DNA of 60,855 bases, counting the filler, from Sluysia triapertura (taxonomy: Eukaryota): NCBI GenBank assembly GCA_046118255.1. It is 5 parts of 5 records of this genome, joined end to end, with 100 filler letters (N's around TTAATTAATTAA, not from the genome) between each part and the next. Parts side by side here need not be neighbours in the genome. Positions count along the whole stretch, not along the records: positions 1 to 12,689 come from JBJNIA010090014.1; 4 more parts are not named here. One strand, given 5' to 3'. Position numbers and translations under genes: made by a program. The notes under the pieces are model-generated. The model did no database searches. It was not told where the DNA came from and saw nothing but the letters and a program-made list of their open reading frames with translations. Below are positions 1 to 58,908 of this stretch, piece by piece; positions within the stretch are counted from its first letter, which is position 1, and every line of letters starts with the position of its first letter.

Positions 1-3000
1 TTTTTTATAGTATTATGGCACATATATATGTGTGCCACTTTATGAGAATGTTTATTTTACTTTCTTAGACAGTTTTTTCAAATTATATCCTGGTAGCGAA
101 CAGGATATAATTTAACAATATAATTAATATTTTTTACTCTTCATTTTCCAATCCATACAGATTTGATAATATACAAGTAACAAAATAACAAAAAGCACCT
201 GATATTTTAATTTTAATTGTAGTTTAATTTATTTATATTGTTTACTCAACAATCATAAGCAAAAATTAATTCAATAATTTATACATTATGCGAATTGTTC
301 AAATAAATTATTCAAAATCGAATATCTAAATTTTTTCACTATTAGAATAAATTAATTCTATAATATCTACTGTTTCGCCAATAAATCGTCGAATGCAATA
401 GTTCTTCCTGAATTTAAATCTCGAAGGAAAGCAGTAATTTATCGAACTCAATCGATAAATAAATTAAATTTATTTGGTAATAAAATTATAAATTAACATT
501 AGCATTCCAATCAAAGATTTTAAACTATTCGATCTTATTTGATTTATTTTCTGAAGATAATAATTTTTCATGCATAGTGAATGTTTTTCAAAAGATCGAA
601 GATTGAGCATATCAATGACAATTTTAATTTTTGTTAATTAATATCTCAAAATTTAACTATCACAGTTTATATGTATTTAATATTTAATATTTAATATTTT
701 ACTAATTATACTAAAAGTTAATCATTTTAATCTTTAATACTTAATCATCTTTATTTATTTAAACTTAAATGGTAAAATAAATATATAAAATAAATAAATA
801 AATATACAATAAATATATATAGATGTATAGCCGTATGGACTTTTAAGATTAAGTAAATTATACTTTAGTTTGAAATACATTTTGTCATTTTTAATTAAGA
901 GTCAATAGATGTTCTTCATTAAACAAAACCACAAGGTTTGAAACATCATTAAAATAAACATAACTAATTATAATTTATACTAAAATTATATAAGATAATA
1001 TATTAGGTAAGCCGTATGGGTGCTATCACATTTCAGTGAACCATAAATATCAAAAAGTTAGATTATAGATCAAAAATGTCAGTAATTTGTCAAAATGAAA
1101 ATTAAAGAAAGATGTGGTTACAGATAATACCGATTGATATCTAAGTAGTGACTTAAATCATAAATTTTCACACTTTTATCGTTGAAAGCTTTACGGTAAT
1201 CTATGAAAACTTAGTATTAACACTTAGTATTAAACGAGCTTTCATTACCTTAAAATTATTTCTTTATTTCTTTATGGCTTTATTTGTAATTTATATATTG
1301 TTACTTAGATTCTATCTTTAAAACAATCATAATTATTATTATAATGAAAAGTGATTATACTAAATCATCTAGAAACTTAGTTCATTCAGGATACTTAGAT
1401 AAAATTCATGCTTAAGTCTATAAAATAATGAGCAGATATGTGTCTGTTCTTCTATATACTTATTAAGAATTGGAGTAACTAGAATGTACAACATTGGTTA
1501 CTCACTTTTCAAAACAATAATAAATAAATCAACTAAATAAATCATATTGAATTCAAAAACAATTGAAGGAAAGAATAATTAAATATCTTGAAAATAATTA
1601 ATAAGATACTTTAAACAAAATATTTTTAAAAATATTTCCCGTTATTTTGAATAAGCTTTATGCCTTGCATTTAATATTATTATTTTTTAAATGTACCATA
1701 GTTGGACAAATGTTAGGATTGTTTTTACTTAAAACCACACAAAAACAATAATATTCTAAAAAACAAATAATCAATTACTTATGATTATGCGAAAATGTGA
1801 AATAAATTGAAAAAGCTTATTACATTCAAGCAATAGATACTGTTGGTAAATAAAAATTAATTCTAATTTAAATTAAGGTAAATGCCTTTAAAAATAAAAT
1901 AAGTATGAATTAGTGAACCTAATTTTCATTTTGTATGATTTAATAATATGAAAACTTTATTTGATTGTAACACTGTATTTTTATTTCACAAAATCAGCGA
2001 AATTATGTCGAATAATTATAATAATTTATTTCCTGTTATAAGCTTACTTTAAAATAATTTTAAATCTTATTTAGTTATTGATTGTTTTACTGATTAAAAA
2101 CTAAATTAGACATTATTTTATAATGGAGCATTTTTTGCATTTTAGTCTTTAAATTTTAAGCAATTAAAGGTTAAATTATTTTAAAAAAATGACCATGATT
2201 GTATATTTTTTATTTTGTTTTTATTACAAGGGACACATTCCCAAGTAAATAGAGGGATTTTAATGAAACTATACGCACTTTATAGATTTCGGCACGCTGA
2301 TTTCGAACATCCAATCCGTTTTTCGGATAAGTAAATCATTCTCATGTTATATCCCAAAAAAATTGAACCAAATAAAATTTTTCAATTCTGATTTCAGATT
2401 TGAATTCAGCATTAAAAGTCTGTAAAATGACATATCACACAACAAGAGCATTGACTTTACGAATTACGTAACATAACAATATCAATATAATGGGCACAAT
2501 GTAAATTGCACAATTATCATTATATAAAATTTATATTTTTGCTAGTTTACTATGAAATTAAACTATCCCAACGTATAATTATTAAATTTATTTTTATTCA
2601 TTATTATTTAGATATTGAATAATACAATGCTTATAAGGGTACCAATAATTTATTTATTATTTCCGGAAATTGCAAGTAATAAAACAAATGTTAGTCAAAT
2701 AATCTGGACAAGAAATATACAATACCAATTTAGAACTACTCTTAAATATAATAAATATAATAATATTTTAATAAATATTCAGTTTTGTCGGAACTCTAAT
2801 GTAAACTGAGCCTAAAGAATAAGCTCAGACTAGTTTACTAGTTACATAGAGTCGACGTTTTCAAAATATTTAGATGCAACAAAATATAATCAACACATAC
2901 ACAAATATGTACATATATTTCTTGTTTCAATAAATGTAATTGTTGAAAGTGGATTGTATATATTTTAACTGATTAATTGGAATGTTTGAATTATATAAAT

Positions 3001-4178: not shown

Positions 4179-6500
4179 TTTATTTATAATGGATTCATAA
4201 TACTATGTATCAGAATAATCTTTAACAAAAACTAAAACTTTAGATAGGTATGATTTAACAGTATAATGCATTAATGTTTCGCATATTATTCTAAAAGTAC
4301 CTCTTTCTATAACATCATTTGGCGTAGCACAGACATAAAGTTTCAACCGTGCTAGAAAATTACATTCTGATTCGACACTAACAAATTGTGGATTATGATG
4401 TAACAAAAATCTGAACTTCTTTTCAATTTCACCATAACATGTTGAATAAATTTGTTTTGTTTAAAAATCTTTTTATTTTTCTTCTTGCTTTTATTGCTAG
4501 ATTTTGATAATACAATTCGTAAATCTTTCTCAATGTCTTCACGTAATTGATGACGAATCCTTTTATCTGCCCCGTAAATTATTAAATATTGAATAGGATA
4601 AAAATTTCTTTAATTTGACTAGTGTGATGAAGCATCATTAAAATTCGACTAGGAGTTGCTACTAAGCTGTCAATATCAGAAATACTAAGTTCCGTTAATC
4701 GATTAGTCATATCTATATCTCCAGTCAAACGCATTCTTTTCAAATTCATTCATTTTTAAAAACTCACAATACTCTTGTATTACTAATACTCTCACAATAC
4801 TAATTCAACTGAGAGAATTAAAATCATTAGGTACATAAATTGCTGATCGTTATCCAAACATCGTTAAATAACTTGAATATAATAGCGAACAGTTTTCCGC
4901 TGCCGGTTCCAAATAAACCAAAAACATTTTTATGTTTCAGTAATAATGGCGTAGCATGTTGTTGAATTTGATCCAACTTTGACCACTTTAATTTAGAAAT
5001 ATTATCTAAAAGTTTAGATATGTTAGCTGCGGCTGTTATCGTTATCGAAATAAGGTATTAACTTTTATCAGTGCTCTAAATTTTTAAATTTTTTTAACAC
5101 TATTAATGATCGTTACTTTCTTTTATCTGTTCAACGGTATTATTAGTGAAAAATTTTTTCTCTCTTTAATTTATTAAGAAATATCACCTATGAAATTTTC
5201 GTGCTTAAACAAATTATCAATCACATCAAAAACCTTTACGAAACACAAATGCTGTATCGTTTATACAACACCACTATCAATCTTTGTGTTGTATGTTACC
5301 TGTTTTCAATTAATCGATATGACTATGATGCATATGTCGATAATACAATCTTGTGTATCTGTGCAAACTACTGTCCTCCAATAATGATATTGTATGGTTT
5401 TAACTTGGTTATTTATGTTGATTGGACGAAAATTAAAGAGATGAATGAGTATAATATATGAAGAACTTTCTGATTGGTTAGCTAATCAAACAAAAAGTAT
5501 AACGAAACACCACTCACACCGTGTACATCACTCACTACATAATAATTAATGAATAAGTAGACATAACATAAAATTTTCATTATACAGCTGTCAATGGTTG
5601 ACAGTAAATACTATTGACACAGTTTTGTTTAATTAAAATTGTCAACTACTGACAATTACTAAGATGTGTTGAATATTAATGTTAAAAGAAATAATAATAT
5701 TGAATAATAATAATGAAAATGGTCAAAATAATAATATAATAATAATTAAAATTAAATGAAATAAAATAAAACAAATCCTTTATTTACTCTTTACATGCGC
5801 TTTCTATTAATATTTTGCTTTCTTAACATAAAAATAAATAAATTTATTTAAAGTGAAATTTGTGAGGAGTTGGAGGATTTAGAACTTGAACTATTTTGGA
5901 GTAGATTTTGAAATATATTTGAAGAGCTAAAGTGTAAATTATAATTCAAATGTTATTAGGTAAAGAATAAAATGTTTTACATGAATTTTTAATGTATATT
6001 GATGGTTGAGATGTAAATTGTGCTTTTAATGGTGAGAGCTTGTGAATTTAGCTGTTTTGAATAAACTTTAAATTGTAGATTGATTGTTTTAAATGTAATT
6101 GTGGTTCTGATGTTATGAATTATAGGTTAACATGTTTTAAAAGAGTTTTTAGATAATGATTGATAATTTTGAATGTTGACAGATTATTAATTTACATGTT
6201 TTGAGGTATGGAAAATGGTTTTAGTGGATCTGAAGAAATAAAATATAAAAAAGGTTTTAATGGAAAATAGTTAGTGTTATGGAATATGATTTTATGTGAA
6301 GTATGTTGGATTAAGTTTGCAATGTTTTGAATTAATTTTTTAAGTAAATCTTTGATGATTTTCGGAATTGATTGTGAATTTGATGTTATGTAATTTTATT
6401 TTTGGAATGTTTGGAAATATTATGAATTATGAAATGTTGTGAAAGGTTTTTTTGTTGTATGTTATGTTATAAAATTTCAAATTATTGGGTTGGTCACTAC
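3651..6500 (-). mobile_element. Cassette element A: G-poor repeat leader, junction motif 5830-5771, hairpins, CCAAT boxes, partly decayed orphan ORFs
   Basis: Shares junction and architecture with B-E; TGTTTT anchors at 5973/6053/6133 (80-nt period); boundaries approximate. Confidence 0.65.
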
Positions 6501-6897
6501 AGCATTATCCTTCTGATGAATTAATAAATTTGATTAAGTCAGAATTAAACTACTTTACATAATTCCCCAGTTATTATTCGAGTTCGTAATGCCATTTCCA
6601 ATTATCTTTGTTCATATTTTTAAAAGATGAACATAAACGTTATTTTAAATTATAATTTTAATTTAGTTTAATGAATTTTGTGGTTATAGAAAATCGCGTA
6701 AAGTAAATTATTGAAGTGTATAAAAATGTTAAGAGTGTATAAAGACGTTTTGCTTCATGAATATTTCCAGCATTTTAATAATTTTAAAAACAAATAAACA
6801 TATGGATATCAATTAGTTAAATATATTATTATCACTATTATTATTGCTGAGTTTTCCTTACTTGGACTTACGAATAAAGTAAACGATTTTTCTTGCG

Positions 6898-6945
6898 GTG
6901 AGTCCACCAACGTACTAGACTTAGCGATTAGGGTTAGCCGTTGGA
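6898..6945 (+). repeat. Structured motif H, copy 1
   Basis: GTGAGTC-ca-CCAACG-tacta-GACTTAG-...-CGTTGG. Confidence 0.75.
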
Positions 6946-9196
6946 TTTTTCAAGTCAATTAAAATTATAAAATTTAATATGAAAGTTATTTATCTGGCTG
7001 TCTAAAAATTTTATGAGATAATTACATATTAGTCTTGATAGTTATTAAATATAATTTTATGAAAATCCTATGCAAAGGATTTATATTGAAGGTTTATTTT
7101 ACGTATCCGAATGAAATTCGGAGAATACTTTATACACTAACTAATTTATTATTTTAAAACTATTTACGCTGGATTCACTAAATGAATCTTTCAACTTATC
7201 AAATTTAAACGAAAAATTCAATTTAATAAAGTTTACAATTAATGTTTGTTAGAGTCAATAAATTACTAATAAGATTGTTACAGAATTAATAAATTAATTA
7301 ATTTATAATAATTTACTCTATTAACTTTATCCAAGTTAATAAAAATACTGTGGTATTTTAAAAATTGATTTTTCGATTGAACCGTGAAAGGGTTCCAATA
7401 TATCTTAAAAATGAATTTAAGTCTATTTTACGTGTAATACTATTAAAAGTATTAAATACTTATAAACAAATAAACTAATGACAGTTAAAAAATTTAGAAT
7501 TGTCTTCTGAAAACAGCAAAGTTTTATCTTCTGAGAGTTTCTAATGGTTCATCTTCTGAAAACGGCAGACATGAATTTACAAATTGTTTCAGATAAAATT
7601 GTGCTAGTATTTATATAAATTTTTAACTGTCCTTGAAAAGGTTTTAAACAAATTTAAATTTTCGATACATATTTTAATATTTAATAATTATAAAATATAT
7701 AATTAAAATATACTTACGTAATTTAACAAATAATAAATCCAATATTAGTTTTGATAATTACGAAATAAATAAATCAATAAAATTAGACAGAATAAAATGC
7801 AAAGTATATACAAAATCAAATAAATCAATGCAATTGCATACAGTTAATTAATTACTTAGACACATATAAACACATATAACAAGTCAGTTAGTTAGATATT
7901 TATATTTACATTATTAAGAAATATTGTTTTAAAGGTGTATTATATATTACTAGATTTTCTAATATCACATTTAGGATTTTATTACGTGTTTCATTCAAAC
8001 TTTTTTTAGATCTAGCGATATATGTCTTTTTCACACATTTGTCTTTTTTGATTGTCGAAGAATCTTTTTATTACATTAATAAATCGACTAGTTCCAAATT
8101 CTTTCCATGAAATTTTTATTTTTCTTGATATTTTGTTTTCAGTACTATCTTCTGCAGCCGGTTCAGATAAATTTTGTTCCTCTTTTGATATTGTATTAAA
8201 CTAAATATAATAACGAAATTTACCCTTTGTTATCAATTAATTAAACTTATTTTGTTTTGTAAATTAAAATATGTTAGAATTCTTATATCTAAGATTTGAA
8301 ATGAAATTTAATAATTTTAAAAACAAATAAACATATGGATATCAATTATTTAAACAGAAATTCCATTACAATTGATATGTTTTTCTGAATTTAACATTTT
8401 CAGTTAAAATGGCAATTTTAGCTTATGAATATGCAAATAATGTAATTAGATTTAAAAGTACTGACACATTTTCCAAATGAATAAAGATTTGGAATCATTA
8501 CAAATTCAGCTTGTTAAAAGAATGAAATGTAATTCAGAAAATAATGAAATGATATTCTCTTTCCAGGTTATATAAACACTAAAAAATTTTGAGGCTAAAT
8601 CCACAGTTTCTTCGTATAATGATGACTAAAAAACATCACATTTATTAAATATTAATGAAATTATTAAATGATAAAAAGTCATTGTTGAAAATGTTAAAAG
8701 ATGATTTATTGATGCATCTCTTAAATGCCATACTTTATTTTATTATCAATAATTATTTTAATTATTTTACCTGTAGACAGATAATAAAACAGATAATAGA
8801 CTATTTTCTTATATTTATTATTTTTAAATAAAAACATGATTGTCTAAAGTAAAGCTCATATCCTCATGATAAAAGAAATGATTATTATTGTGAATTATAT
8901 GATAAAAATGAAAGTTCCTGATAAAGTTAAGAATTATGAAAGCAATAAAAGGTACGTAAATATTATGATATAATTTATCTATATACTTGTAGTGAATCTG
9001 ATTTACAAATTTATTAATGCATTTTACAACAGAAAATTTGTTTGAGGCAAGACCATTTTAATCAAAATTTTATTGTTTCTGGTGCAAGATCAGACAAACT
9101 AAATTAAATCGATATTCTTTAATAACCAAAATATCAAGTTTATGAAACAACTTATAGATCTGAAGATATTAGATATAGGTCTATAGCTGATAAGAA

Positions 9197-9280
9197 CAGT
9201 GGCGTGCCTAGGTCGTGTCCCAGGGAAGAGCAAGATCTGGCGCACCGGTGAACCTGCACCTCCCTGCCTCCCATTTGTTC
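9197..9280 (+). mobile_element. hAT-like transposon end fragment
   Basis: GC-rich CAGTGGCGTGCCTAGG...TGGCGCACC; similar end at 24989-25052. Confidence 0.4.
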
Positions 9281-9314
9281 TGTGAAGATTCTTAGAATAA
9301 AGTAGGATTTTAAC

Positions 9315-9362
9315 GTGAGTCCACCAACTTACTAGGCTTGCCAGTTAGGGCTAGCCGTTGGA
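9315..9362 (+). repeat. Structured motif H, copy 2
   Basis: Near-identical to copy 1, with GGCTTGC and CTAG/CTAG changes that keep the pairing. Confidence 0.75.
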
Positions 9363-9959
9363 TTTGTAGATAAAAGATTTTGAAGTAAAGTTTAGAATGA
9401 TTTTCTAAAGCGTGCGTGGTTTTGCTAGGATATTCTTAGTTTAATAACTTTACTGTTAATTTCAAATTTAGTAATTTAGTTGTTATGCTTTCTTTTAGTA
9501 ATGGTAAAGATTGCAAATGCAAATATATTTTAACTGTTGTTCATTTATATACTGTTGATTTTAACTGTTGTTGATATGATTAAGCCATCTTTTGAAAGAC
9601 GAAATCGATAAACAATTAAAGGTGAATTTGAAAATTTATATGAATAGTATCGCAGAATATTTGTGAATATTTACGAATATTTGTGATACGATAAGTAAAT
9701 AGAAATTTTAATAAAATATTTAAAAATAACATCAAATTATATTCAACAAAACAAAAGTAAAACAAAAGCAACATTGAAATATTTAATAAAACTTTAAAAA
9801 TTTCATGTGGCACAAATTCACTGACAATGGAAAACAAAAGTAGTATAAATTATTACCAGAATTAATAAATTTTTATAATAATAAAGTTTATTTTAATTTA
9901 AATAAAACTCCATGACTAATGACTAAAACTTCTATTAAAACTTCTAATGACTAAAATGC

Positions 9960-10800
9960 TTTGTACACTGTAGTGGTCAAAACTCATAATCCAAGATCAC
10001 AATCACACTCAATACTATCAATTTACAACTGGTAGTTCACAAAAAAACAACTTCTAAATCAATCATATTTCATACCATCATAAACAATATTCCACATTTA
10101 TAATAATTCAACAACAGACACATCTTAAAATATTCATCAAATACTCTCAATCTTTCACCTTATACTATATTTTGATAATTAACACCGAACAATCCATAAC
10201 ATTCATTTAATAGTTTAATCGCAATCACAACTTATAACATATATATCACAAATACATTAACACTGTTTAACAACATTAATAAGTACCTGAAACATAGAAA
10301 ATATCTACGTTACAACCTCGAATCAATTACACTAAGTGAAACTCATTTCATCGACACATAACCATTATCAACATTTTACAACAACATAGTAAATACGCCA
10401 AGATTTATTTTGTAATCTTTTTTTAAATTAAATAAACTATAACCTTTTAACAAGCCTTTCAAACCATTATATTTAATGCATAAATCTTGTTTTCAATTAT
10501 AAACCTTAAATAAATCTCAAGAATTTATTCTAACATTCTTTATTTTACTTACAACTCCAATCATTCTTTTATCTTCAAAAATAAATTTAATACAGCTTTA
10601 AAGAATTCATTTCCTTTATAAAAAGCAGCAACGATCACTTAAGCGCAGTATACCACATTACTGTTGTTCCTTCACATAATATTAATAGTTTTTATTTGTT
10701 ATTTTATTTTAATATGTAAGGAATCAAGATTTAGAAAGAAAAGATCATGTTAATTTTTATTAAAGACAAGATTTATGCGTTTTATTAGTAATAATAATAA

Positions 10801-10871
<71 letters not shown>

Positions 10872-12600
10872 TCAAATCATTAAAGAATTAAAATTTTAAT
10901 AAATGTAGATTAAACTGGTCGCTACAATCACCAGTTTTGACACAATATGTTACATTTTTCATTAAAGTGCCAACACTGATGATGGTCAATCATCAGATCA
11001 ATAATTTAGCCGCCAAAATAGCAATTACATTATACGTTATCAATCGCTTTAATCATTATTAAAGGCCTGATTGGATGACCGATAATAACGCCGTTCTTAA
11101 AACTAGCTAAAATTAGAGCATCAAGAAAAATAAAAATCGAGACTCAAAAAAATTAATAAACAAAAATTAAAATAACAAAATTTCAGCGTTCTTCTTGGTG
11201 AATTAGTAATTTAAAAAAACAGTAATTAGTTCTGATGGGAGAAAATTTAGACATTACACAAGGTGATATACATTTAGTATCTCCGTTCGGTAATACAATT
11301 TCGTCAACTAAACCAGAACGATAAAAGTTAACAGACGAACAAGTTCAACAGAAAATTGATCAAACTTCTGAAATCATAACTAATCATTTAGACAAGATAA
11401 AACTAATTAAAGATGACTTAGAAATCTATAATAATAAAGACTTTCGCAACAGTTTATGTATTGTCTATAATCAATATTATGTGTTTCAAAATTACAAAGT
11501 TCCACTTACTTTTCGTGATGAATTACGACATACAGATGCCGAAACATTGACACGCAAATGATTTAATTGCAAATTGCTTAATACCATACGTTAATTTGCT
11601 ATTAGAAAGTGATACTATGAGTGATATTAAAAATAATCTTTTTCGTTTTATTATAAAGATTATAATCCTTTTATTAAATTATTCTGATGTCTCTGTTGAT
11701 TTCGACGAAATTTTGTGTAAAACGATCGTTCTTTAACAATATTTCGTAAATTCCTAGAGATTTATGTGCTAGTTTATGTGAATGACAAAACAAACCAGAA
11801 ACGATTGAACGTATTAAAGGACCTTTGGTCAACGAAGGATAGTTTATTATTACATGAAGAAAAAGTTAACTTGGCTGTAATACTAGAAATGAAATTTTTG
11901 TAGTCATAAAACCATTACTTCATTGTGAACGAGAAAAAAGTAAATTATCAATTCTTCAATTTACCATATACGTTGATGCTGAGTCAGAAAGTTCTTTAAT
12001 TTTATTAGACGAGAGTCGTTTTATGTATTTGCTGTCATTATTGAAGAATTCATTGAAAAGTCTTAATCGGAGATCAAGTGGATGGTCAGCATTAGAGATA
12101 AAAAAAGTTATTCTAAAATGTTCTACTACAGTACGAGTTGTAAGGATTAATTCCTTTTTGTCTGGTAAACAACTAACTATATCAGAGATTGTTGATGAAA
12201 GTACTAAAACAATTATAATATTAAAACAGTTATAAAACAATTATAAAACAATTATAATTATAATATCGTTATAATATTAGCTTTTAAAGAAACTATAACT
12301 CGAGAATGTATTCATAATTTCCTCGTCGATATAATTTTTAGTTTCCTCTCAAACAATAATCTCCGAGATCCTCAATCCAACGTGACTATCCTACGATCTA
12401 AAATGAGATATAAGTTATTCTATGACGTCCCAATGGACCCCAATCATGCTAATAGATTCAATGTACATATAAGAAAATTGTATTACTTAGATTTTTTTCA
12501 AAATAAACATAAGCATTATTATAAAAATTCATCAGAAGTAATAATAATAAAAGTCAATAATAAAAGTGATAATAAAAGTCAATTTTATTGTTAATATTGT
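9960..12600 (+). mobile_element. Cassette element B with decayed ORF from ATG 11235
   Basis: Junction 10714-10778, (AAT)/(TAT)/(TAG) tract, hairpins 10912-10997, ATTGG near 11070; frame MGENLDITQG... with in-frame stops. Confidence 0.65.
10790..10871. repeat. Compound microsatellite (AAT)n(TAT)n(TAG)n
   Basis: Direct reading; other (AAT)n tracts at 12790, 26585, 31955, 38305, 50110 and 58560. Confidence 0.95.
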
Positions 12601-27991: not shown

Positions 27992-30900
27992 ATCCAAGGT
28001 AACATTCGTGTTTTAACACAAGAACGTGATAGTATCAATGAAAAGTATTTGAAAGTTAGTTATGATTTGAGTGATTAACTAATTAGTTTTATGTATGTTT
28101 TTAATCATCCTTAATTAAGATGCACTAATAAGAAAAGAGGGATATATATTAGGATATTAGGATAGGAGACATTGCTGTTCGTATTTAAAAATTCAATTGT
28201 TCAAATTGAACAATATTTTAAAAATATTCATGTACATTTAAATTTCAATGATAAATTTGTTTTATTTTATCATTACTTATTGGTTTTAGATGTTTTATGA
28301 TAATATTCATATTCGACATTTTGTCTTTTTCGAGATCCGAAACCACTGAATGTTTAAATGACGTTTCAAATTAAGGAATAGAAGTACAATGAGACTATAT
28401 TGGGTATGGATGCTCTGAACGTATTCATTGAATCAAATCCAAGTCATTTAAATGCGACATTAAGGTTTCACATAATTTGTTAGTAGAGCAATGGAATAAA
28501 AAGTTTATCATTATGATAACAGAAAGTTTTATAAATTGACATGATCATTTTATTGTTTGCATGTTTGAAAATTATATATGTATGTATTTCTTATTATAAA
28601 TTGTCCATACAGTTATAAAATGAAATTCAATAACATTTTCATCTGGTACGAAGACAACCTTTAAATAAATGACTTTTTGACTTAGAAAAGTAGTAATCTA
28701 ATGGTATCAAGAACATGCTTGATAAGGCGCCATTTTAAGTTCATGTAATTCTTTCAGTAATTTCTGGGTAAAGTAAAAGTTTCACTGAAGCAATTCGTAA
28801 ATCTTTTACTTTATTGAGTAGTTTCCATAATTTTTAAGTTCTTGATAAACATGTTGCAAGGTTACAACTTATCGCAAGAATGTTTTTATAAACAATAACT
28901 AATCAAATAAATAATTTTGTGGAGTAATATTTATAATAATGTATTTGTCGCATCTCTATGATATAGAATATTTAGATTATTTCGTATCTGGGAATTACTT
29001 GGTGCTTAAGTGTTAATATAAATTATTAAAATAGATGAAGCATTTATCCCAACTTTTCTTATTTGTAGAAATTTACTTCTTAATATACATTTATCGTATA
29101 AAATGTAAAAATTGAATCATATTTTAATTACACAGAGTCAAGAAGAGTTACACGAAGTTCGTACAAATTTATTGGATTTTCAGTCTCGTCTAGAGAGTCA
29201 GCAAGGTCAGCGTACTACACCAACTCAAACACGTGCTTTGTTACATCGTTTGGAAGCAGAATCCAAACAATCCATGGCTGATCTACATCGCATGACAACA
29301 GAAAGGGATAGTTTACGAGAACAATTGCACACTTGTCGAGAATTAGGATTGAACGAAAAAGCGCAGATGTCACAACGTGTCGATGAAGCCGAATCAGAAT
29401 TATCGAAATTAGTAAATCAAATAGACAAATGGCGTACACGGGTTAATGATTTGGAACAAGATGCGTACGTGAAAGAAGTTCGATTGAATGATATGGAACG
29501 AATAGTAGAAGAAGCAAGGCAAGAAACAACAAAATATCGCGATAAATTCAATATTGTGACAGATAAAGAAAAAGATTTAAATCAACAAAACCGTCACCTG
29601 GAATCAGAAGTGTTAGAATTGCAACGAGATTCACAATCTAAACAACAAATCATAGAGGTAATTCTTTGTCTATACTAGTGTAGTACTATCTTATACTTCT
29701 CAATATGTGGTCAAGATTGCTCTGTTATATTATTGAAATCAAAAGTAGAGATCTTTAACGAATAAATATTGATGAGATTGAATATGTTTGATTAAATAAA
29801 AGTCTCAATTACTATCAAAGTGAATGCAGTATTTGTTGTTAATCTATTTTTAAACCGTATGAGACGTTAAATAGTTATTAAATGATAATTTTAGATTTAT
29901 ATATGTTTTATTTATTAAGAACATACTGTCTCGGTATTTTAAATTATTTTGATGCAATTATAAAATTATACATATTATGTATATTGTATTAATAATGTAA
30001 TTGTAGTAATAAACAGTCTTAAATTATACTTTTTATTGAAGCACCCGACCATTTCTATTAAGTTAGCAGCCGTCAAGTTGACCGCGTACGATCAGTATAA
30101 ACCAAAAATAAACACAATATCAATGTTATAATTTCCCAGCGAAATATTACTATATTCATTCTATATTTATACTATATTTATTCTAGGTTTCATTCATTTT
30201 TATCTATTTTTAAAAAACCGATTGGTACTCTCTGATTTAACTGTTTGTTTTAATTTTACCGATGTTTCCAAGGATCTGCTGTAACACATAGAACTAATGC
30301 TGGGGTTTTATTTTATCTTAAAAAACTACCTTACAGAAAAATAAAAATTAATATTCGAGTTCGCTTACGGTATACGACTTACCAATGGCTTATCTGTAAG
30401 TAACGTGAAAGTATGCTTAAAGAATAACGATATAATAATACTTTTGCTTCATTGTGTATTAGAAAACTCCTATGAAATGCTATTAGACATATCGTGAATA
30501 AATTATATGCTAAAACATAATAACAACAGTGACCAACGTGTTCCCTTATAAAACTCGTTTATATCGAAACTTTCTAACGGAGTAATAATATAAAAATATT
30601 TAAGTTGAAATTTTATGTTATCTACTTTATCACAAGATGTAACGAATTATCTTTAAATGCATGTATGATCTACTAGGATAATATTAAAGCTAACTTTATA
30701 TTGTAATCTTACGTTATTTACTTTAAAAAATGGTCAGATATCGTTAAATATAAATTCGAGTAATTCAAATTTTAATATTACATTAAAAACAACAAATATT
30801 ACGTAAACTGTATTATATAAAACTTAAAAAACACTAAATACACAAATATAATTTATATCAAAATTATAATATAAATAATGATAATAACAATAATTTATTT

Positions 30901-35000: not shown

Positions 35001-36919
35001 ATTGTGCACAAAATTGATCTGGAAAAAATTATTACAAGAAATATCCAAGTGAATTTTTGGCTGTAGTAGGGTATCCACGAAAAAATACCATTTAAGTAGA
35101 TGCCTTTTGGAAAGAGCCACATAGATACCTGCCAAGAAAATATAAAAATAATTATACACAAGTATAAAAATATTTAGGATCAAATCAATAATTTAGTTGT
35201 TTATTTGACATTCGTTTGTTTGATTCCACCGTTAGAGAATAGTTATAATTTAAAGTACTATATTTATATTTATATTTACATATTTATATTTAAATTTAAA
35301 GTATCGAGTAAGTTTAAATATATTAATTAAGTTTGAATAATTTTAAGAGAATTAAAGTAATGGTTTTATCACGAATCATTTTAAGGCGAGTAAGTATTAA
35401 TTATTTTACGAGATTCGAATAATTGAAGTACTTAGCCATTAATACACAATCTCTTAAGAATTGTTAATTCGACAGAAAGCAGTTTTCATTTTAACATATA
35501 AAATATTATTAATGGAAAATTTATATTCAGAGAAAAGTAAAAAGTCCATTAAAATTAAAACTTGGATTATTTGTAAAAAAATTAAAAAGTTATATGATTC
35601 TTTGTATTATGTTTTACAGAATTTGTATATGCTTGTATGAATTCTTAGTCTCTGGTAATTATCCAAACTTTAATAATGTTCTCACTTTATATTACTACAT
35701 GAATTTAACTAAAGGTACAATCTTTTATTAATGCAAATTGTCTCTATTAATTAACTCTGCAAGAGATATCTCTACTTTGTCTATTATATTTGCCTTATCT
35801 GGAAGTGTGAACTCGAATACTCGTCTCAGTTACTCGAGATGGGAATGCTTATTAATTAACTAATTGCTCAATTAAATTTATATTCTTTATTTGAACCTTA
35901 ATTTATTTTATATATCTACGCTTCAAGATGCAATATCTTATTCGATTATTTTAAAAGAATACTTTTATTTTATAATTCTCTACTCTGTCCACCATCTCTG
36001 GCACCAATCCCGAGTTATTAACATATTAAGCTATAAAGTTTAGGAAAAATAAATTTTTACAGACCCTCACTTAAGGTCTATACCTAAATAACTCATTGGT
36101 TGTACAAGTTGTAAACATATCCATGTTCACTCATACATCCCTGATTACAACCCACACTCAGTTTAAATTAAAATAATTTTACAGGTAAGGTTTGCAAAAT
36201 AAAAAAGCAGAAGATTGTAATATAAATATAGTATAAGTATAAATATGTAAGAATGTAAATTTATTTATCCTTTTCTGTTGAATAACAATTAACAATATAT
36301 TAACACTTAAGCGTCCGCAAATTTATTTTGCCGCTATGCGAAATATTTTACGAATTTTATAAATTTAACTTGTTAAGAAAAGTCAGTGTAAATTTATGAA
36401 ATAATGGCTTAATCAAAATGTAGGCATAACTAGGGTACCGTGTTACAGAGTGCAAAATACATGGCCGGTGGTTAAGCGACAGTAATATAACATACATTAA
36501 TGTACGGCCGGATCTTTAGGTGTTAATTTACATAGAGTCAATACATAAGATAGAAATACATTTAAAATAACCAAATAACTTCGCTTATTTTCATTAAGAT
36601 ACACAACTTAAATTGTGCCATGGATAACAATCACCAAGTTATTGAGATTCAGAAGCGTGAAAAGAAAGAAATATTACAAGAACTTGCAGCTATGCGTGAT
36701 CTTTGTACTCGTCTAGAGTCTAGTAAAGAACAATTTCAACAGCAAGTATCTTCTCGTTTGTTAGAAGTAGAACATTTACGAGCTGAGAATGCAGAATTGG
36801 TTCGCGAATTGGAATTTGCCAAACGTGAATTAGAATCTGTACAAGATTCTCTTCATAATATGGAAACAGTGGTCAGTATGGGTCGAGATAAAGAATACAG
36901 AACGCAAATGGATTATCAG
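27992..36919 (+). CDS. CEP135: CEP135/Bld10 (TSGA10 family) centriolar coiled-coil protein; internal exons 27992-28054, 29136-29657, 31619-31942, 32041-32219, 33686-33869, 36599-36919
   Basis: IQGNIRVLTQERD and ALLHRLEAE...ADLHRMTTERDSLREQL...NEKAQMSQRV match the CEP135 conserved block. Exons join in frame via GT-AG. Both ends are missing. Confidence 0.85.
30290..30415 (+). repeat. Structured motif H, copy 4, with conserved flanks
   Basis: Aligns with 38058-38175 from TAATGCTGGG to ACGTGAAAG. Confidence 0.7.
32334..32857. mobile_element. piggyBac-type MITE
   Basis: TIRs CCMTTTCAGGAC.GG.TG, flanked by TTGA and TTAA. Confidence 0.75.
36304..36522. mobile_element. TTAA-flanked MITE (piggyBac-like)
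   Basis: TTAA on both sides; imperfect TIR CACTTAAGCGTCCG / CACCTAAAGATCCG. Confidence 0.5.
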
Positions 36920-38057: not shown

Positions 38058-38175
38058 TAATGCTGGGTGTTTTTCTTAACCTAAAAACCTAACCTATAGC
38101 AAAATAATTAATTATTATGAGTCCGTCTACAGTATACGACTTACTAATGGCGTACCTGTAAAATTACGTGAAAGC
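38058..38175 (+). repeat. Structured motif H, copy 5, with conserved flanks
   Basis: TGAGTC-cgtc-TACAG-tatac-GACTTAC...CTGTA. Confidence 0.7.
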
Positions 38176-38377: not shown

Positions 38378-39107
38378 TAAAGATTACAATATGATAAATG
38401 TTAATGAAGCTATTACTATTGTTTGTGAAAAGGAGTTATTCTATTATTTCATTTATTTTTATTATTTGTTTCGGTAAATGCAGCATATTCTGTTATAAAA
38501 TTAAATATTATATATTTGATCGTAATACACATACGAGTATATCAGGTTTATTGTCATTTTATACATATCAGATGGGTTTATATATGTTGTGTTTTATTTC
38601 TTGTCAGCAATAAAACATATGTGGAAATCCTCTGTAAAGTAAACACAACAAAATTCAAAAAAATATAACAGTTAATTGGATAACCCTTTCGCTGCTCTAC
38701 ACGTATATATTCGCAAAAATGATGTCTCACACGCTCCAATCGAGTATTTTCGCATCATGTTTTAAAATGGTTTCATGCTCAACGCGACTATTTAGGCCAT
38801 ATAGTGCATACGGATGGAAATCTACGAGCGTATGCTGCTCTGGTATTTGATATTTGTTGGCTTAACCATGCAAACTTTCAAAACGTGTTGCGCTTAACTC
38901 ATAGTTTGTTTATTTTAATTGTATAACAAAACATTTCCATTTCTGACTAAACGAGAGTCGGTCCAAAGTACTCAGAGTAAGGTAAAACTTTCTCATTAAA
39001 ATTAAAAAGTTGTATAAATTATCTTACATGATGAATATTTAGTTGATTGATGTTATTCATCATTCTGTATACTTTTACTTACGAGTTTTTGTAATTAATG
39101 TTTAAAG

Positions 39108-39593: not shown

Positions 39594-39744
39594 GGGTACA
39601 GGCCTAAAGTGTCATTTAGAATAATGATAGTATAATTGACTATAATAAAATAAAATCGTTAGACGGGGCTGACAGCTCAGTGGTCAGAGCGCGAACTGCA
39701 CAGCTGTGAAGTAAGAGGGCCCGGGTTCGAATCACGGTCATCCC
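39594..39744 (+). repeat. tRNA-derived repeat, copy 3 (tRNA part 39665-39744)
   Basis: Same family with the same ~70-nt 5' flank; longer anticodon region. Confidence 0.8.
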
Positions 39745-39825
39745 GACAATATAATAGAAGTATGGAGTCTTCAAAATTCTTTATTAGGGTTATTGCCAAA
39801 ATCTACAATAAATATTTATTTGTAG

Positions 39826-40276: not shown

Positions 40277-42750
40277 TACAAACAACTTGTGTTTTTTATT
40301 TAAAACAAGCTTCAAAATTCAGGAAGCATCGTATAATCAAGCATGTAAGCAGAAAAATTTGTTATACAACTTAGTTGACTTTATACGTGATTTAAGACAC
40401 TAAAAAATTAAGTTATGGCTGTTTTTTTGTTAAATATTTAATTATATATATTGCCATAATTCTTTCTAAGAAATCACTTGGAAAATGCTTTTATAATTAA
40501 TTATGTTTGGTGAGTCTGCCTACAGTAAACGTTTTATGTCTTTGTTGGAGATGCTCCTACAGAATTTTAAAAAAATGAGATGTCTATTTTTTGAGGATAT
40601 TATTTCTTTAGCTTTTAAGGTAAGCTCACGACGTAACATTAAACCAACAACAATACGACCTTTTAATAACGTTTTATCCAGTGGTTGGATAAATTTGTCT
40701 AATTGTGGACTTTGATAGCTGACAGTAATTTATTATTTTGTATATACAACTTTAGTATGAAAAGAAAATGTAACTTTTACTTAAAATTTCAATAAAATAT
40801 TATTCACAATGCGGCAATAATGATTCTGTAACAAATTTAAACAGGTTTGATTCTGAGTTTATTTATCTTTATTACTGATTATAATTCAATAATAACTTCA
40901 TAAATCAATATCAATTACCAAAATGTAAAACTAAAATCTAAGAATAGCACAACTCAATTAAAAATGAGTTAACTACAACAAAGTTAAGCATTGAAGAAAT
41001 ATGAGATTCAATTACAGCAGCAGAGTCTATTTAATAGATTTCGAATCGCAATTCGACTAAAATGTGTGCATATTCCTTAGAATCGGTGTTAGGCCGACAA
41101 ATGTTAGTGATTAAAATTTAACAATAATTTCCGTCACATTTAATAGATTTTCAACGAAATAATAATTAATAATTACAACTTTTAAGTAAATAAAGAAGGT
41201 AATCTTCAGACTTCATTAAATTATTTTCTATTAATCAAAATTGTTAAATTAAAGCAGATGTGCGCACATAAACTTTAGTTTACTTTAGAAGTTAATACTA
41301 AAATAAATTATTATTCGTCCTTAAACAAGATTCATTTAGCGATATTTAAATTAAAGTATAAACTTTAAAATTGCTTTTGCTGAATTTATTTTATGTGAAA
41401 TAATAAAATGAAGTTTTATTGCGCTCGAAAGAAATTAATTTCATTTAGTCTTTAAATCTTTTAATCGATCTACGGAATTACACATACCGTCAGTTTTTAA
41501 TTGTTAATTACAGTTTTTCTTGAATATAACTTTTAAATAATTGTTAATATCAAATTTTAAAAATAAACTTCAGAACAATCAGAAAGTCCGATAAAATAAA
41601 ATGACACGTGGAAAGCTAGCTGTTAAAGCGAATGACTGAGTAGCAAAAATAGCAGTTTGGGTTACACTTATAATTTATAATCAAAATCACGTCAAAAGAC
41701 CTAATGGGCGAACTATTTTGCGAAAATATAAAATGCATAAAGAGAAAAGGAAATTTGGTACAAAATAATTAGAAAGTTATTTTTAATTATTTTAAAGTGG
41801 TTTTGAAGGAGTCTGTCCTTTTATTATTTCGTACAAGTGGTTTTATCAAAGTAGATTTTGGAACAGAAACAAGAACGGTAAGGTTTTCATAATATGGTTG
41901 GTGTACCATAAGTGAAGACTTAGGGAAGAAACACGGATCATATAGAGATATAAGTTTGCTTGTATCTAGGTTTATGCATCGTAAACGGAATATCTCACAT
42001 CTGAAATGGAATTAAATAATTAACGATTATAAAGATAAAAACAAATTATAAAAATTAAAATAAAATGAATTTAAACTGTTTGTTTATATTCAAATATGTA
42101 AGAAACAAGTAAAACAGTGTATAATTGAAAATTCAGAAGAATTATATACAAATTATATTATTATTTTTTATCACTTAACAAGATAAATATAAATTAATAT
42201 AAATGTATCCATTATCATGAATAAAAGTTTATCCCAAATTAATATTATAACCAAGAAATGTCAAATTATAAATCAAATAACAGTTAATTAACGGTTAGCT
42301 TTTTAGAGCACTAATAAATAAATGTACATCAATAAAAAAATTAATCGCGGGTGAACCAAGCAAAATTGTAATGTTCCCCAAAATTTAAATCAAAATAATC
42401 AATATAAACCGAAGTAATAACAATACAAATCGAATCTAATCAATGTCTTTTCGCTCACTGACTTTAGACAAAATGATTTTGTTTTTAATACTTAAAATCA
42501 AAAGATAATTATTAAAAATTGATCAAAGTTTGCTTTTAAAAATTTATAAACAACCAATTAAATCATTTGTCACTTAAGGGTTATATAAAATTTAAAGAAA
42601 AAATTGAAAATAAAATTTCATGGGGTATTCTTGTGTTTTCTAGTAACAAAAATGCAACAAATTCTCAATTTCATTACTTAAATCACAGGCATATGGTTAC
42701 ATAAAAATTAAAACAAAAATATAATAGTATATTTTGTAAAGTATAAATTT

Positions 42751-49793: not shown

Positions 49794-50106
49794 TTATTAT
49801 TTAAAAATATTAAATAATTAAGCTATAATAGAATGTATATAAATATCACTTGCAAATATTTTGCAACGCACATTTATTAGTTATAGTTAGTTACAAAGTT
49901 TTTTTAAAGAAAACTTGAAGATATTATTCAGAATTAATTATTGAAATTCCGAAATTGAAGATACAAATTAAAAATATTTCTAACTATTGTTGTGATATTT
50001 ATTGTACTCACAGCTTAAAATCATAATATTTAAAATTATTATAAACATATATTTTAAAAATTATTTGTATTAATTATTATTAATTAATTATTATTATAAA
50101 TTAATA

Positions 50107-50153
<47 letters not shown>

Positions 50154-52008
50154 GCTCTATTATTGTTTTTGTATAAAGTGTTTAATTAATAATTTTTTCA
50201 ATTTGAATTCTTATTGAGAGTAGAGCCCCAAAAGGAGAAGATTAAAGTAACTTTACATAATAATTTAAAATAATATTTGTTTTGATAAAATAAAATTTGA
50301 GTTGAAGATAAAATAAAGACGTACGCCAAAATAAATACTCAACAATAAGTTAATATTTAAAATCAAAGAAATACACATTATGTGGAATATTTAATCCATC
50401 TTTAGTACCAAATGATTTAGCCTTTCTAAGAGCAACATTACATTCCTAAGGATCCATTTTATATAATATACTTTTCGTATCGAATACCAGCTTTAAATAT
50501 TAAACTAATCCTACACACAGGGAGGGTAATTAGACCTATATCATTAATAAAGTTGATCTAACATATCTAATTTAAAATTTTTCCAATAAAGACATTTATA
50601 TTCAGTTAAAAAAATTAATATATAAAAATATAAAAATGAAAAATTTATTGAAAAGTGTTATCAGTATGTCAACTATTTTCAAATGAATAAAGAGCATTAT
50701 TTATTTAATATTTGCGAATTATATCTGATTACTTAACGTTCACGCTCGAGTTAATTCGAGCGTGATCATTTTTTTGATATTTATAACTTTACGATTTCGG
50801 GAATTTGTATAAAGGCCACTGTTTCTTATATTTTACGATTTAGTCATGAAATATCAAATACTTGTTTCTTTTGTTTTATATGTTTAGTTCAATATTTACT
50901 TCAGTGTTGTAAACTTGCAAATATAAGCATATTTTTAGTTAGTTATTTTGTTATTGCATAAAATAAAATTGCGTATGTTGGATATTCATACAATTGGTAT
51001 GTTTACTAATTTTCAAATTATTATTATTATATTTTATTTTACATTATATTTTAGTAATACATATTATTAGTAATACAAAATATTTAATAATTTTTTTAAA
51101 TATTTTTTTTATTTAAGAGCGACATTACATTATTAAAAATTTTGTACCCTTATTATTATTATTTCTGTTGAAAAAGAATCAATGAATATTTTTACTGATA
51201 AAATTGTTTTTTTTCGAAACCGCAATTCGAAAATAAAGATAATAAAAGTTGATTTACGTACAAGATTGCAATATTACAATTAGAAATTTGTATTTTTTGC
51301 CAAAACAAGGTTCTAAAAGGTGTTTTATTAAATAAAAAAATAGCTTTTTTGCCGATTTTTCCAAAATATGTATTAATCTTGGAAGTATTAATATCGTTTT
51401 ATTTATAAATATATCGGATATAACTTACATATTATTATCAATATTAAAATCAATACTACAACCAGCCGAGTATTGAGAAATTAAAGCATCTGTTTTCTTT
51501 TGCTTGGCGACTAATGGAATTTTTGTTGCTATTCGTTTTAGTTTCATTAAGTCTAGAAATAGTTATATAAGATGTATTAATAATAATAATATTAATAATA
51601 ATAATAATGATAATAATAATAATAGTAATAGTAATAAATTTTGGCACCAAAATTTAAAATGAATTGAAATGAAATTAAAATGAATATAAATATAAATACC
51701 TAAATTTAATTAGGTTATAATTTATCTATTTGCAATAATAAAAGCTGTGTGAATTTTATTTTAAAATTATATTGTAATGAAAACTTTAGTTTCTTTAAGT
51801 TCAAATTATATTTATTGCCCTTAAACTTATTCTTTATTAATAATTAATGACTCTTACCCACTTGAAAATTATTTGTAAGCTTTAGGTAAATATAAACTTT
51901 ATAAAACTTTTATTTTTATTGTAGATTAAGAATATTGTAATGTTCATTTTAATCACTTTAAAAATCATTTTACCATTTTAATTTTCATAATTTTAATGTT
52001 AATTAATG

Positions 52009-52385
52009 TTTTAAATTGAGATTGCATAGAGGTAATATAAATTCAAAATTTAGTAACAAAAAACAATAAATTGTACAGAGTAATCATTTTAAATTGAGAT
52101 TGTATAAAGATAACATGAAATCAAAATGTATAAACATTAATGAAATAAATAAAATCATTTTTAAATTAAGTTTTGGCAGAGATAATATGAAATTAAAATT
52201 TCAGAGCATCAAAAAATCATCTTAAAAACAGTATTCAGAATATTATGTTAAATAAAATAAAATCATGTTAAAGTAGGATTAAATAGAGATAACATGTAAT
52301 TGAAATTTAATATTATATTCGATCAAAATTATTTTAAATTAAGAATAGGCGGAATAGATAGAAATAACATGATATCAAAATTTAA
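52009..52385 (+). repeat. Degenerate minisatellite, 5 units
   Basis: Core TTTTAAATTRAG...AGAKAAYATGAAATYAAAAT separated by variable AT-rich linkers. Confidence 0.7.
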
Positions 52386-52439
52386 TTAATTAATAATTAA
52401 TAATAATGGTTATTATTGTTCTGTGCTTACTTAATTCTA

Positions 52440-52656
52440 TTAATTATTTAATAACTATTATTATTTAGTCTAATAACTATATTGTAAATAACTATAATGA
52501 TATTAATACTGTTGAATATTGTGAATTATTGTGAATAACTAAACTAATATTTAGTTTAAATAACTATATTATTTCTATTAACTATGGACCCAAAAAACTA
52601 TATATAGCAAAGATTTTTGTGGAATAGTGAACAATTCACTATAATTTTATTCAGTG
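52440..52656 (-). mobile_element. CACTG-ended (CMC/EnSpm-like) transposon end with AATAACTAT subterminal repeats
   Basis: Minus strand begins CACTGAATAAAATTATAGTGAA; about 6 AATAACTA repeats; related TAGTGAAwwwTTCACTA palindrome at 43880. Confidence 0.4.
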
Positions 52657-52729
52657 TAATTACAAAAATTACAAAATTCCAACACATATTAATACGATAA
52701 TGGATAAATCATAAAATAGCACGATAGAC

Positions 52730-53570
52730 TATGGAGAAATCCAAATTACAAATTAAAATTTAACAAAGACAAAAAAGAACAATTATATGAAGTTATTTAC
52801 CGTTTTCCAGAGGGAAATTTCAAAAAATAAATATGATATAGGAGACACCGTAATTATAAAACATGAAGATGAAGTAATTCGAAGGAAACTATATAGAATT
52901 AAAAGAAAATGGAGGACCAAATAGGTACCATGAAAAGGCTGAAGTAATGCGGCCAAATTTCTCCCTATTTTCGTCACCAAAATTACTAGTAAAGGAGAAG
53001 GATGATACGATTTGTATAGATTTTAGGGAGTTAAATAAAATACGAGGAAAGATGCATTTCCATTACCGCAAATAGACGAGTTGCTGGATGAATTGGGAAA
53101 CGCTACATATTTTACAACTCTCGATTTACAAAGTGGATGATTCATATCCATAGATGTCAAGCTGCAGCAAAAGAAGAGTGCACTTAAGAAATAAAAAAGT
53201 TCAAAAATCAAAAAAGGTTAGGCCAAAACAAAAATATCGTGATAAACTACATTCAATCCATTTATTAATACACAAACAAGTAGTATTCATGATTCATCTC
53301 CCACTGGTAATTCAGCTCATATAATGGGTTAGTGCAGCTATTGACACCGGTGCTACCACATCAGTAGTACATCGTAACTCTCTAACCACAAGGGAAATTA
53401 GTATTTATAAACCAACCTAGAACAATAATTTATAGTGTTAATCAAACACCGATTAATATTAATGGAGTGTTACTATGTTACATAGACATTTTGGTTTAAT
53501 TTGTACAAGTATCCGTAAATGTTTGGGATAGCCCATTCGACTTAATATTAGACTTAGGTGTTATTAATGA
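52730..53570 (+). mobile_element. Decayed Gypsy/Ty3 pol fragments (RT N-terminal part, then aspartic protease)
   Basis: CIDFRELNK..KDAFPLPQIDELLDELGNATYFTTLDLQSG at ~53015-53140; IDTGATTSVV at ~53340. Confidence 0.88.
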
Positions 53571-56500: not shown

Positions 56501-58559
56501 AAAATTTATAAAGCCGACATAAATAAAGTGAAAGACAATTTATTGCAATAAAGCATAGTTATTCTACGATAAAATAAAGTCGTTACCAAATAAAACCAAG
56601 TTGTCGTGAAGTTTAGATAAGTTATAAGATAAACAATGTTTCATAAAGTAAAGCTGTGGTGGATCAGCCGATTACCACGATCATATTATATTAATAACAT
56701 CATTTATAGACAAAAACTATCAAAAAAGATATCACAACACATTTCACTTATACCATCAAATAACATCACATCAAATCCCACACTTGCACCACTAGATTTC
56801 AACTTCAAAAACAATAAAGTTACAAAATCATTAATTAAATTAAATTTTAACTTAATAATACTAATCTTACTAAACTTCAACCTATACAATAAATATAACT
56901 CCCATTGTCGTCGTATCATCGTTATCCTTTTGTACTTTTTCTCATATTTATATTTTTATACTTCTGTTTTATTATGTCTATGTTTTACGAAATTTGTCTT
57001 TATATACCGAATAAACTTCCATCAAAATCTTATTACAAAGCAAGATTAAATTGTGATCGACCGCCACAACTCGGTGTGTCATTATGGTCTATATTATATT
57101 CTGTATTATATTTTATTATGTTATATCTTATATTATATTGTATTTATATTATGTTTTGTGCAATGCCTTCAAAGCCAAACGATTAAAGAAAAGAAAAGAT
57201 AAAGAATTGAACATAAAGAAATTGTTTAACAAAAGAAAATAAATTAATTGATTTAATAAATTAAAAACTACATCGAAAATGCGACCTTGTGCTATATTTA
57301 GAATTTTATAAAAATTTAAAGTTATAACAATGCTCATATTATTAACATTTTCATTTCATCTACAATTGGTTGGTCTGTCATTTCTTTTATTTTGCATCTT
57401 TTATTTTATTTATTCTTTCTTTCTTTCTTTTATTTTATTTTATTTCATTTTATTTATTCTATTTCTTCTCTGTACTACATTGAATACCAATCTTCATCGT
57501 GAATTAGTTCAATTTCATTGTTTTCGTTTACCTAATTGGAAGCTTGGGGTGACTTTTGGTCATTAAACTGATACCAATTTATTTCTTTCCGGATAGTTTG
57601 GAGGTTTAGAGCAATCTGCTTGGTTAATTTCTGTGCATTGTGTAGTGTTTCAACCATGCACTACAATCTCGTCGTCGTTCTCATACATAAATTCATACAA
57701 GTCATAATTCAAACCATACATAATCTACATATAAAATATTTTCTACATATCACCACTATTATTCCATTTTGGACGTGGTCTCTTATATTATCAAATGGAC
57801 TTAGTTTGTTATTTATCTATTTGCGTTTTATTATTGTTATTATATATATATATATGGACTTCTTGTGTTTTTCTTGTTAGATTTATATTATCAAGGACCT
57901 TAAGTCCACTTTTATAAACACAAATGTTTTAAAAGTTTATAAATTTAATAATTTTTTTCATAAATTAATGTTGCTCAATCAAATCAATAAACTATTAACC
58001 TTTTTTATCCTAATTAACAAACAATTAAAGAGTAAAACACTAAATATAACAACATTAAACATTAGATTTTGATTAAAGTGTGAACATTACATTAAATTTG
58101 TATGAGCTGTTGGTAATGATTTTAAGTAATCGAAGTTGATTTTAATGGTTTGTTAAACATTACTTTAACTAAGGTTGTTATCAAAGGTTCTGTTGTTATC
58201 ACAGTTTACATATAGTATATACCCAATCTTGTATGACATCTTTATACAGCATTCATCATGATCACTCATACCTATTTATACAAGAAAAATGGATAACATT
58301 CAAATGTTATAAACACCACAAAACCTATATATTTAAGACTAGGATTACATTTTAATAGTAATGGACAACTGCCTTCATATAATCACAAATCTTAAACACC
58401 TATAAAACCTACAGGGTTATTAAAATGAATTAATATCATTGAAATTTCCTTTAGACCTAATAATCGCAATGTATAAAAATCTTTTAATGATGTTGACATA
58501 TCTCGTTTTTATTAATAAAAATAAAATTAATGAAAAAAAATAATAAAGATAATAATAAA

Positions 58560-58615
<56 letters not shown>

Positions 58616-58908
58616 TTGTCGTGTAAGGTTTATTCTACGATTGATAGTAAGTTGTATTCGTACAAAACTCATGAAAACGATTTTCTATAAATTTAAACTA
58701 TATTTTGATAAAGTGAATTTAAATAAGATTTTGATAATGATAAGACTCATTTAGTCTTATCAGTAAAGAGTAAAAAATAAAGTTTTGATTTCAGAAATAC
58801 CCATGCAGTACATTTCACCTTACTTTTACTTTTACCTATTATATCATGAAATTTAGTACTATAAGTTGGATGGTTTTTATCATGGTGACATTTTATTATA
58901 ATGACATT

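Follow-up and report, generated by a model that had tools for sequence, protein, structure and literature searches.

An approximately 50-base motif that can open with GTGAGT and fold on itself recurs along the stretch of Sluysia triapertura DNA analyzed here (60,855 nucleotides, filler included; the window), and the question it raises is whether it serves the splicing of host genes, belongs to a known class of structured RNA, or is a working part of a mobile element. The window has a G+C content of 25%, with short exons and scaffold gaps, and contains genes for glycogen synthase, a dynein light chain, and a protein kinase, a WD40 exon, and a long coiled-coil gene. A glycogen synthase exon matches mollusc, flatworm, and annelid proteins at approximately 70 to 77%, while the best E value belongs to a moth protein (66%), and from these matches the host is an animal, probably a spiralian one. 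The exons of this gene (23649 to 26586, minus strand) cover residues from approximately 320 onward only; the N-terminal half is missing beyond a scaffold gap at 26660. Two homolog searches made to map host exons around the motif copies returned no matches.

The features of the motif are collected in Table 1. Copies proposed in the preliminary description at 6898, 9315, 17862, 30356, and 38118 (plus strand) and at 21698 to 21641 (minus strand) were borne out, with contig depth as independent support. The weaker candidates fared unevenly: the one at 40510 holds up in its 5' half and not in its stems, that at 36058 to 36095 has its stems (by eye and by folding) and no covariance model (CM) hit, and that at approximately 822 to 844 (minus strand) is a short fragment, not confirmed as a copy. 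The CM likewise gave no hit to copy 7 at an E value of ≤5, and this copy rests on the hand register, in which 10 of its 10 pairs form. A strict pattern, fitted to the copies themselves, matched four times in the window and never in 100 shuffles, and a loose descriptor matched 10 times, compared with a mean of 3.45 and a maximum of 7 in 20 simulated windows. Short forms lacking the inner stem were not above chance window-wide (9 versus a mean of 8.8 expected).

Table 1. Positions of the motif copies and associated units in the window
Feature	Position	Strand	Remarks
Copy 1, subfamily A	6898..6950	+	Tail of 7 bases (6898-6904); terminal T run; loose contig ends at 6898-6899 and 6948-6950
Stems of copy 1	Outer 6907-6912/6939-6944; inner 6915-6918/6934-6937	+	Pair count in hand-set register
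Tandem unit preceding copy 1, a shorter variant	6848..6891	+	Has the tail, the loop heptamer of the motif, and a 6-pair stem; inner stem absent
Copy 2, subfamily A	9315..9365	+	86% to copy 1; decayed upstream unit by eye
Copy 3, third stem variant	17862..17911	+	CM scan and stem pairing
Copy 4 core, subfamily B	30355..30400	+	Mid-intron of coiled-coil gene; start without GT
Longer subfamily B element around copy 4	30295..30411	+	Common to copy 5, 78% over 119 bases
Copy 5 with subfamily B flanks	38058..38174, core 38117-38161	+	Match to copy 4; stem pairing
Copy 6, decayed	40510..40562	+	Followed by T4 and A7; 5' half kept, stems broken; CM E value 4.6
Copy 7, fourth stem variant, enlarged loop	21641..21698	-	Upstream flank like subfamily B by eye
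Copy 8, weak	36039..36095	-	Antisense in coiled-coil gene intron; both stems by eye and fold; no CM hit

Several smaller features lie near these copies. A stretch of 48 bases is duplicated at 6774 to 6821 and 8307 to 8354 (98% identical, 1.5 kb apart), and a 120-base G+C-rich island (9176 to 9295) stands immediately upstream of copy 2. Just downstream of copy 7, on its own strand, are three copies of a small hairpin-forming repeat (21233 to 21284, 21472 to 21521, and approximately 21520 to 21550), and a small unit resembling the motif, its 7-pair stem perfect, lies 167 bases upstream of it (21865 to 21838, minus strand). A fragment at approximately 1006 to 1030 (minus strand) resembles the subfamily B loop.

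When cut by coordinate into tail, linker, stems, bulge, and loop, six copies keep an interrupted 10-pair hairpin with 56 of 60 pairs formed; 9 of the 10 hairpin columns have changed on both sides. Permuting the 3' strands reached 56 pairs in 4 of 720 permutations (mean, 38), and with one copy per stem variant the counts were 38/40 and 37/40, each reached in 1 of 24 permutations. The outer and inner stems thus covary across four independent stem variants, in a test that uses a hand-set register and is not of R-scape grade. All five of the outer-stem pairings listed in the preliminary description stand, and the inner 4-pair stem, absent from that list, covaries as well. Pairing was counted in the hand register because the automatic alignment behind the CM shifts the 3' strand by one column from one subfamily to the other; neither that model nor the pair count on its alignment (60%, with 230 of 500 shuffles as high) is informative. 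A proposed excess of G-U pairs on the plus strand did not materialize, the 60 cells holding two G-U pairs, two A-C mismatches, and two other mismatches, which pick no strand. Folding z-scores are weak (-0.1 to -2.3), with the other strand better for two of the six copies folded on both strands, and the hairpin itself has an energy of -3.9 to +2.4 kcal/mol as DNA and of -7.2 to 0.0 kcal/mol as RNA, mostly stronger in the latter form.

The tail and the loop carry invariant letters. GTGAGT, the splice-donor sequence of the preliminary description, is present in four of the eight copies examined (6898, 9315, 17862, and 40510) and absent from the other four. The reported pairing of the tail with the loop is indeed complete (7/7) in copies 2 and 3; one pair is missing (6/7) in copies 1, 5, and 7, and copy 4 has 5/7. 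Altogether, 37 of 42 tail helix cells in six copies are paired, but the helix hardly varies in sequence, and an equally good count is reached in 624 of 720 permutations; the pseudoknot proposed from these pairings has complementarity but no support from covariation. To judge from the sequence, an H-type pseudoknot competing with the hairpin is possible. Since the linker of 2 to 3 bases cannot span both stems, the tail helix and the inner stem would be alternative folds, by geometric reasoning rather than computation.

The abundance of the motif became apparent from the contigs of one public run, possibly the one from which the window itself derives; 1,074 of these contigs align to 6760 to 7060, with a summed depth (which is not a copy number) of 69,291 at the core versus 16 in the unique flank. 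At 30180 to 30540, 479 contigs align, with a summed depth, to be read in the same way, of 101,660 versus 18, and the repeat depth around copy 4 carries on to 30540. The contig counts imply hundreds of copies and the depth ratios suggest thousands, so that the motif is a high-copy repeat with at least hundreds, and probably thousands, of copies. The shorter unit upstream of copy 1 has a depth of 1,500 to 2,500, approximately 3% of that of the core, with four to five spanning contigs among those listed.

Subfamily A has two sharp boundaries. Loose contig ends number at least 130 at 6898 and at least 30 at 6899 on the 5' side and at least 81, 90, and 50 at 6948 to 6950 on the 3' side; the similarity begins at G6898 and stops after a run of 3 to 5 T's, and the flanks are mixed and A-rich on both sides. 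Flank agreement is 0.47 to 0.53 for subfamily A, compared with 0.40 to 0.45 for random window samples and 0.60 to 0.81 at the loose ends of subfamily B, although the agreement figure and the random-sample null were possibly computed differently. Among the majority letters of subfamily A, which are listed for positions away from contig ends and leave out the outer stem, a C at 6924 (80% of depth) completes a 7-pair tail helix from the first base, a C at 6934 (90%) completes the inner stem, and a G variant at 6919 (33%) keeps a wobble pair on the plus strand only. Majority letters of subfamily B at 30369, 30390, and 30361 likewise repair pairs, and in the majority form the stems appear to hold Watson-Crick pairs only. 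In subfamily B (copies 4 and 5, and probably copy 7), the core does not start with GT and lies within a longer element conserved on both sides. Together, the very high copy number, the covarying stems, and the flank shared within subfamily B bear out the earlier view of the motif as a conserved structured element of a mobile element.

Known RNA families offered no match. Rfam scans of the whole window (at gathering thresholds and at an E value of ≤10), plus three local scans, gave nothing near threshold on any copy, and a likeness to helix I of 5S rRNA was dropped for want of Rfam support. A keyword search of the literature, which did not use the sequence, turned up no description of the motif, and the family may already be in Repbase or Dfam. 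Pattern scans matched once in metagenomes, zero and one times in viral collections, and zero and seven times in prokaryote genomes; none of these nine loci, from collections in which animals are not represented, keeps both stems, and one (L002) falls within a coding frame. The pattern used for the metagenome scan and for one of the viral scans misses the majority form of subfamily A, and the metagenome scan is thus incomplete.

Among self-cleaving RNAs, HDV-like ribozymes (of R2, L1Tc, and RTE elements and of the minimal and theta types) are described as starting at a G that opens a helix, with upstream sequence that differs between copies (PMC6765202), and motif copies likewise open a 7-pair helix at a G with differing upstream sequence. 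An HDV-type P1 from G1 has 7 of 7 pairs in copies 2 and 3 and in the subfamily A majority and 5 to 6 of 7 elsewhere. In addition, the C-U/G-x-A/G run before the last strand resembles HDV J4/2. However, the room left for P3, L3, and P1.1 amounts to just 5 bases, the motif lacks the nested double pseudoknot and an Rfam match, and subfamily A shows no conserved downstream retroelement sequence. A descriptor of the HDV double pseudoknot, drawn up for this analysis and run on both strands of the eight copies with 150 bases on either side, found none on the motif register, its one AT-rich match starting in the 3' half of copy 1. Descriptors drawn up likewise for the hammerhead core (CUGANGA plus GAAA) and for twister (UAA cleavage strand, L4, and two pseudoknots) each matched 0 of 16 strand-regions, the first half of the hammerhead core alone being found before copy 7, and Rfam returned no twister match. 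The motif could nonetheless be a candidate for a new class of small self-cleaving ribozymes, of HDV type without P3 and cutting before the first G, a reading of the sequence that we consider unlikely. The cut would free an RNA of approximately 52 bases, retrotransposed on its own, and subfamily B, whose copies in the window do not have that G, would represent the uncut form, with the upstream flank retained. Such cleavage would explain the 5' boundary and the subfamily B flank, but copy 2 has an intact helix and yet keeps its upstream unit.

How, then, is the repeat propagated, and does it act on its host? The preliminary description had proposed a splice-donor switch or a spliced-leader (SL) RNA domain. 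That GTGAGT opens half of the copies and is able to pair with the heptamer of the loop, and that an AG lies within 10 bases of the hairpin end in copies 1 to 3, would suit such a role; subfamily B, however, lacks the GT, and copy 4 sits in the middle of an intron, approximately 700 bases after the donor at approximately 29659 and 1.2 kb before the next recognized exon. No upstream reading frame marking an exon was found at copy 1, 2, 3, or 6, subfamily A has no conserved exon upstream (flank agreement, 0.52) and no fixed AG in its downstream consensus, an Sm-like run is clear in copy 1 only, and no copy matches an SL RNA or snRNA in Rfam. The switch is not supported by these observations, the SL RNA proposal founders on the missing exon, and we regard a role of this kind as highly improbable. 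Somewhat better placed, if still quite unlikely, is a binding hairpin of some other DNA element, either MITE-like or similar to bacterial REP/IS200 ends, in which a 4-base guide stands at the foot of a bulged hairpin. In the motif, a hairpin whose bulge is conserved follows a fixed GAGT after 3 to 7 bases, an arrangement we take to resemble those ends, and the majority stems appear Watson-Crick, but the motif has neither terminal inverted repeats nor duplications, no structural relative was present among the nine pattern matches in prokaryote, viral, and metagenome collections, and we know of no REP/IS200-type transposase in animals. The main rival holds that the motif is the end module of nonautonomous Helentron/Helitron2 elements (HINEs), a hairpin in single-stranded DNA with a short inverted repeat that would be read by a rolling-circle transposase and inserted into T-rich sites without duplication; this is a serious possibility, albeit one we lean against. 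It would explain the lack of target-site duplications in the window copies, the T-rich minus-strand flanks (with T runs of varying length), the Watson-Crick majority stems, an inverted 9-mer, and a match to known subterminal sequences. The 9-mer (6863 to 6871), an 8/9 inverted match to the first nine bases of the motif, lies 35 bases upstream of copy 1 inside a small hairpin, where approximately 0.01 is expected per 100 bases, and it offers a second reading of the unit at 6848 to 6891, as a site holding an inverted copy of those nine bases; it is also explained as part of a duplicated unit. In copies 4 and 5, the hairpin is followed directly by an octamer identical to eight letters of 2 of the 15 subTIRs compared, from mite, mosquito, and fly elements listed in the Helentron paper (PMC4067079), with a rough chance estimate of 0.02, yet it also occurs at two other window sites. 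HINEs and DINE-1 share with the motif a high copy number, a hairpin near a T-bounded end, a short inverted repeat, no duplication, and compensatory stems between families; Helitron2 elements are described as showing compensatory hairpin changes and an overabundance of 3' ends (PMC3627910), and HINE right modules are given as approximately 60 bp, in elements common in oyster (PMC7492417). There are also differences: paired subTIRs of 11 to 15 bp (8 to 15 by the Helitron2 criterion) were not seen in six of seven copies, of which four have no inverted partner within 3 kb and two (copies 2 and 4) have one 2.1 to 3.0 kb off; the internal inverted repeat, at 7 bases, is below the described 8 to 15; and the hairpin is long and bulged. 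Moreover, a palindrome 8 to 35 bp from a T-bounded end without duplication fits subfamily A on the minus strand and not subfamily B, in which ≥60 bases separate the hairpin from each end of the element, and a one-ended copy would not give the second sharp boundary of the subfamily A unit (approximately 51 bases). Five probes (four from the core, one from the subfamily B flank) found nothing in 10 supplementary files of the Helentron paper (PMC4067079).

The motif forms the core shared by a high-copy noncoding repeat family, and our preferred, if tentative, reading is that it is a miniature retroposon, that is, a minimal retroposed structured RNA. An RNA of approximately 52 bases would begin at the first G of the motif, would be predicted to fold as the interrupted hairpin or the competing pseudoknot, and would depend on the reverse transcriptase of another element to be copied into A-rich sites. 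The folded molecule would be RNA, the boundaries of subfamily A would be RNA ends rather than limits of conservation, the invariant tail and loop letters might bind a protein or take part in catalysis, and longer transcripts with the same fold may be the source of subfamily B and of the tandem dimers. Copying of a small RNA in this way explains both boundaries, at which loose ends pile up against flanks of low agreement, the T-then-A runs, and a long bulged fold whose stability is low for DNA and mostly higher for RNA. In the downstream consensus, three lines continue past the T run with 10, 9, and 13 A's in a row; of 200 simulated consensus lines taken after a T run in the window, 0 began with ≥9 A's. 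Furthermore, the majority letters repair the tail helix and inner stem, the wobble at 6919 survives on the plus strand only, and the long bulged hairpin with its invariant unpaired letters is unlike the 5- to 10-bp end palindromes described for HINEs (PMC4067079). Several observations weigh against a retroposon: no target-site duplication above chance was found at seven boundary pairs on five copies, window copies have no A tail (20-base A fraction, 0.35 to 0.45), the two G-U pairs are balanced by two A-C mismatches, and the majority stems appear Watson-Crick, as in a DNA hairpin. In addition, no tRNA head or other polymerase III (Pol III) promoter adjoins any copy, A-rich plus-strand flanks are T-rich minus-strand flanks (also the target preference of HINEs), and in subfamily B conservation extends past the motif on either side. 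Retrocopies of small Pol III RNAs, ribozyme-bearing SINEs, and non-LTR retrozymes resemble the motif in being short structured units with a T run followed by an A-rich flank, present as monomers and tandem dimers in many dispersed copies, whereas the motif has no tRNA, 7SL, or 5S head, no hammerhead core, no known parent RNA, and no duplications.

No partner reverse transcriptase was linked to the motif. Other repeats in the window include three related tRNA-like heads (39666 to 39745, plus strand; 25784 to 25918 and 25975 to 26122, minus strand), 81 to 86% alike, which are probably a tRNA-derived SINE family; one scores 32.5 bits against the Rfam tRNA model, and ARAGORN calls none. C-rich, G-poor tracts at 5850 to 6450 and 20250 to 20800 (minus strand) and at 9900 to 10750, 14400 to 14850, and 56700 to 57000 (plus strand) are probably decayed 3' ends of retroelements; three are weakly related to one another, two end alike (by eye) before TAA-type repeats, and none matched Pfam or PDB. 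A connection between these tracts and the motif was considered and dropped, the tracts having a 3' end of their own without it. Broken frames at approximately 52900 to 53100 and 38720 to 38830 (both plus strand) resemble motifs of Ty3/Gypsy reverse transcriptases; the former has no match in Pfam, and the latter was seen in translation. A 121-residue frame at 11870 to 12235 (plus strand), resembling the N-terminal part of Polinton-type DNA polymerases, had no Pfam match, and an insensitive Pfam scan reading through stops found nothing at 49800 to 60851.

In summary, the motif is a genuine repeat, very abundant and as yet unclassified; its hairpin is well supported, its pseudoknot unproven. It is nonautonomous mobile DNA, and instead of a switch for splicing it is likely to be the RNA core, in folded form, of a miniature selfish element. 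If it proves to be a Helentron end or an ordinary nonautonomous repeat, it would be a new family of a routine kind, of use in annotation. If, on the other hand, it is a promoter-less RNA of 52 bases that spreads by itself, it would set a low bound on what a retroposon requires, and its thousands of natural variants would be a ready covariation set. Approximately a dozen classes of self-cleaving ribozymes are known (12 are stated in PMC10761166), and the motif, if self-cleaving, would add a new class and, if the freed RNA is also retrotransposed on its own, be the smallest ribozyme retroposon.
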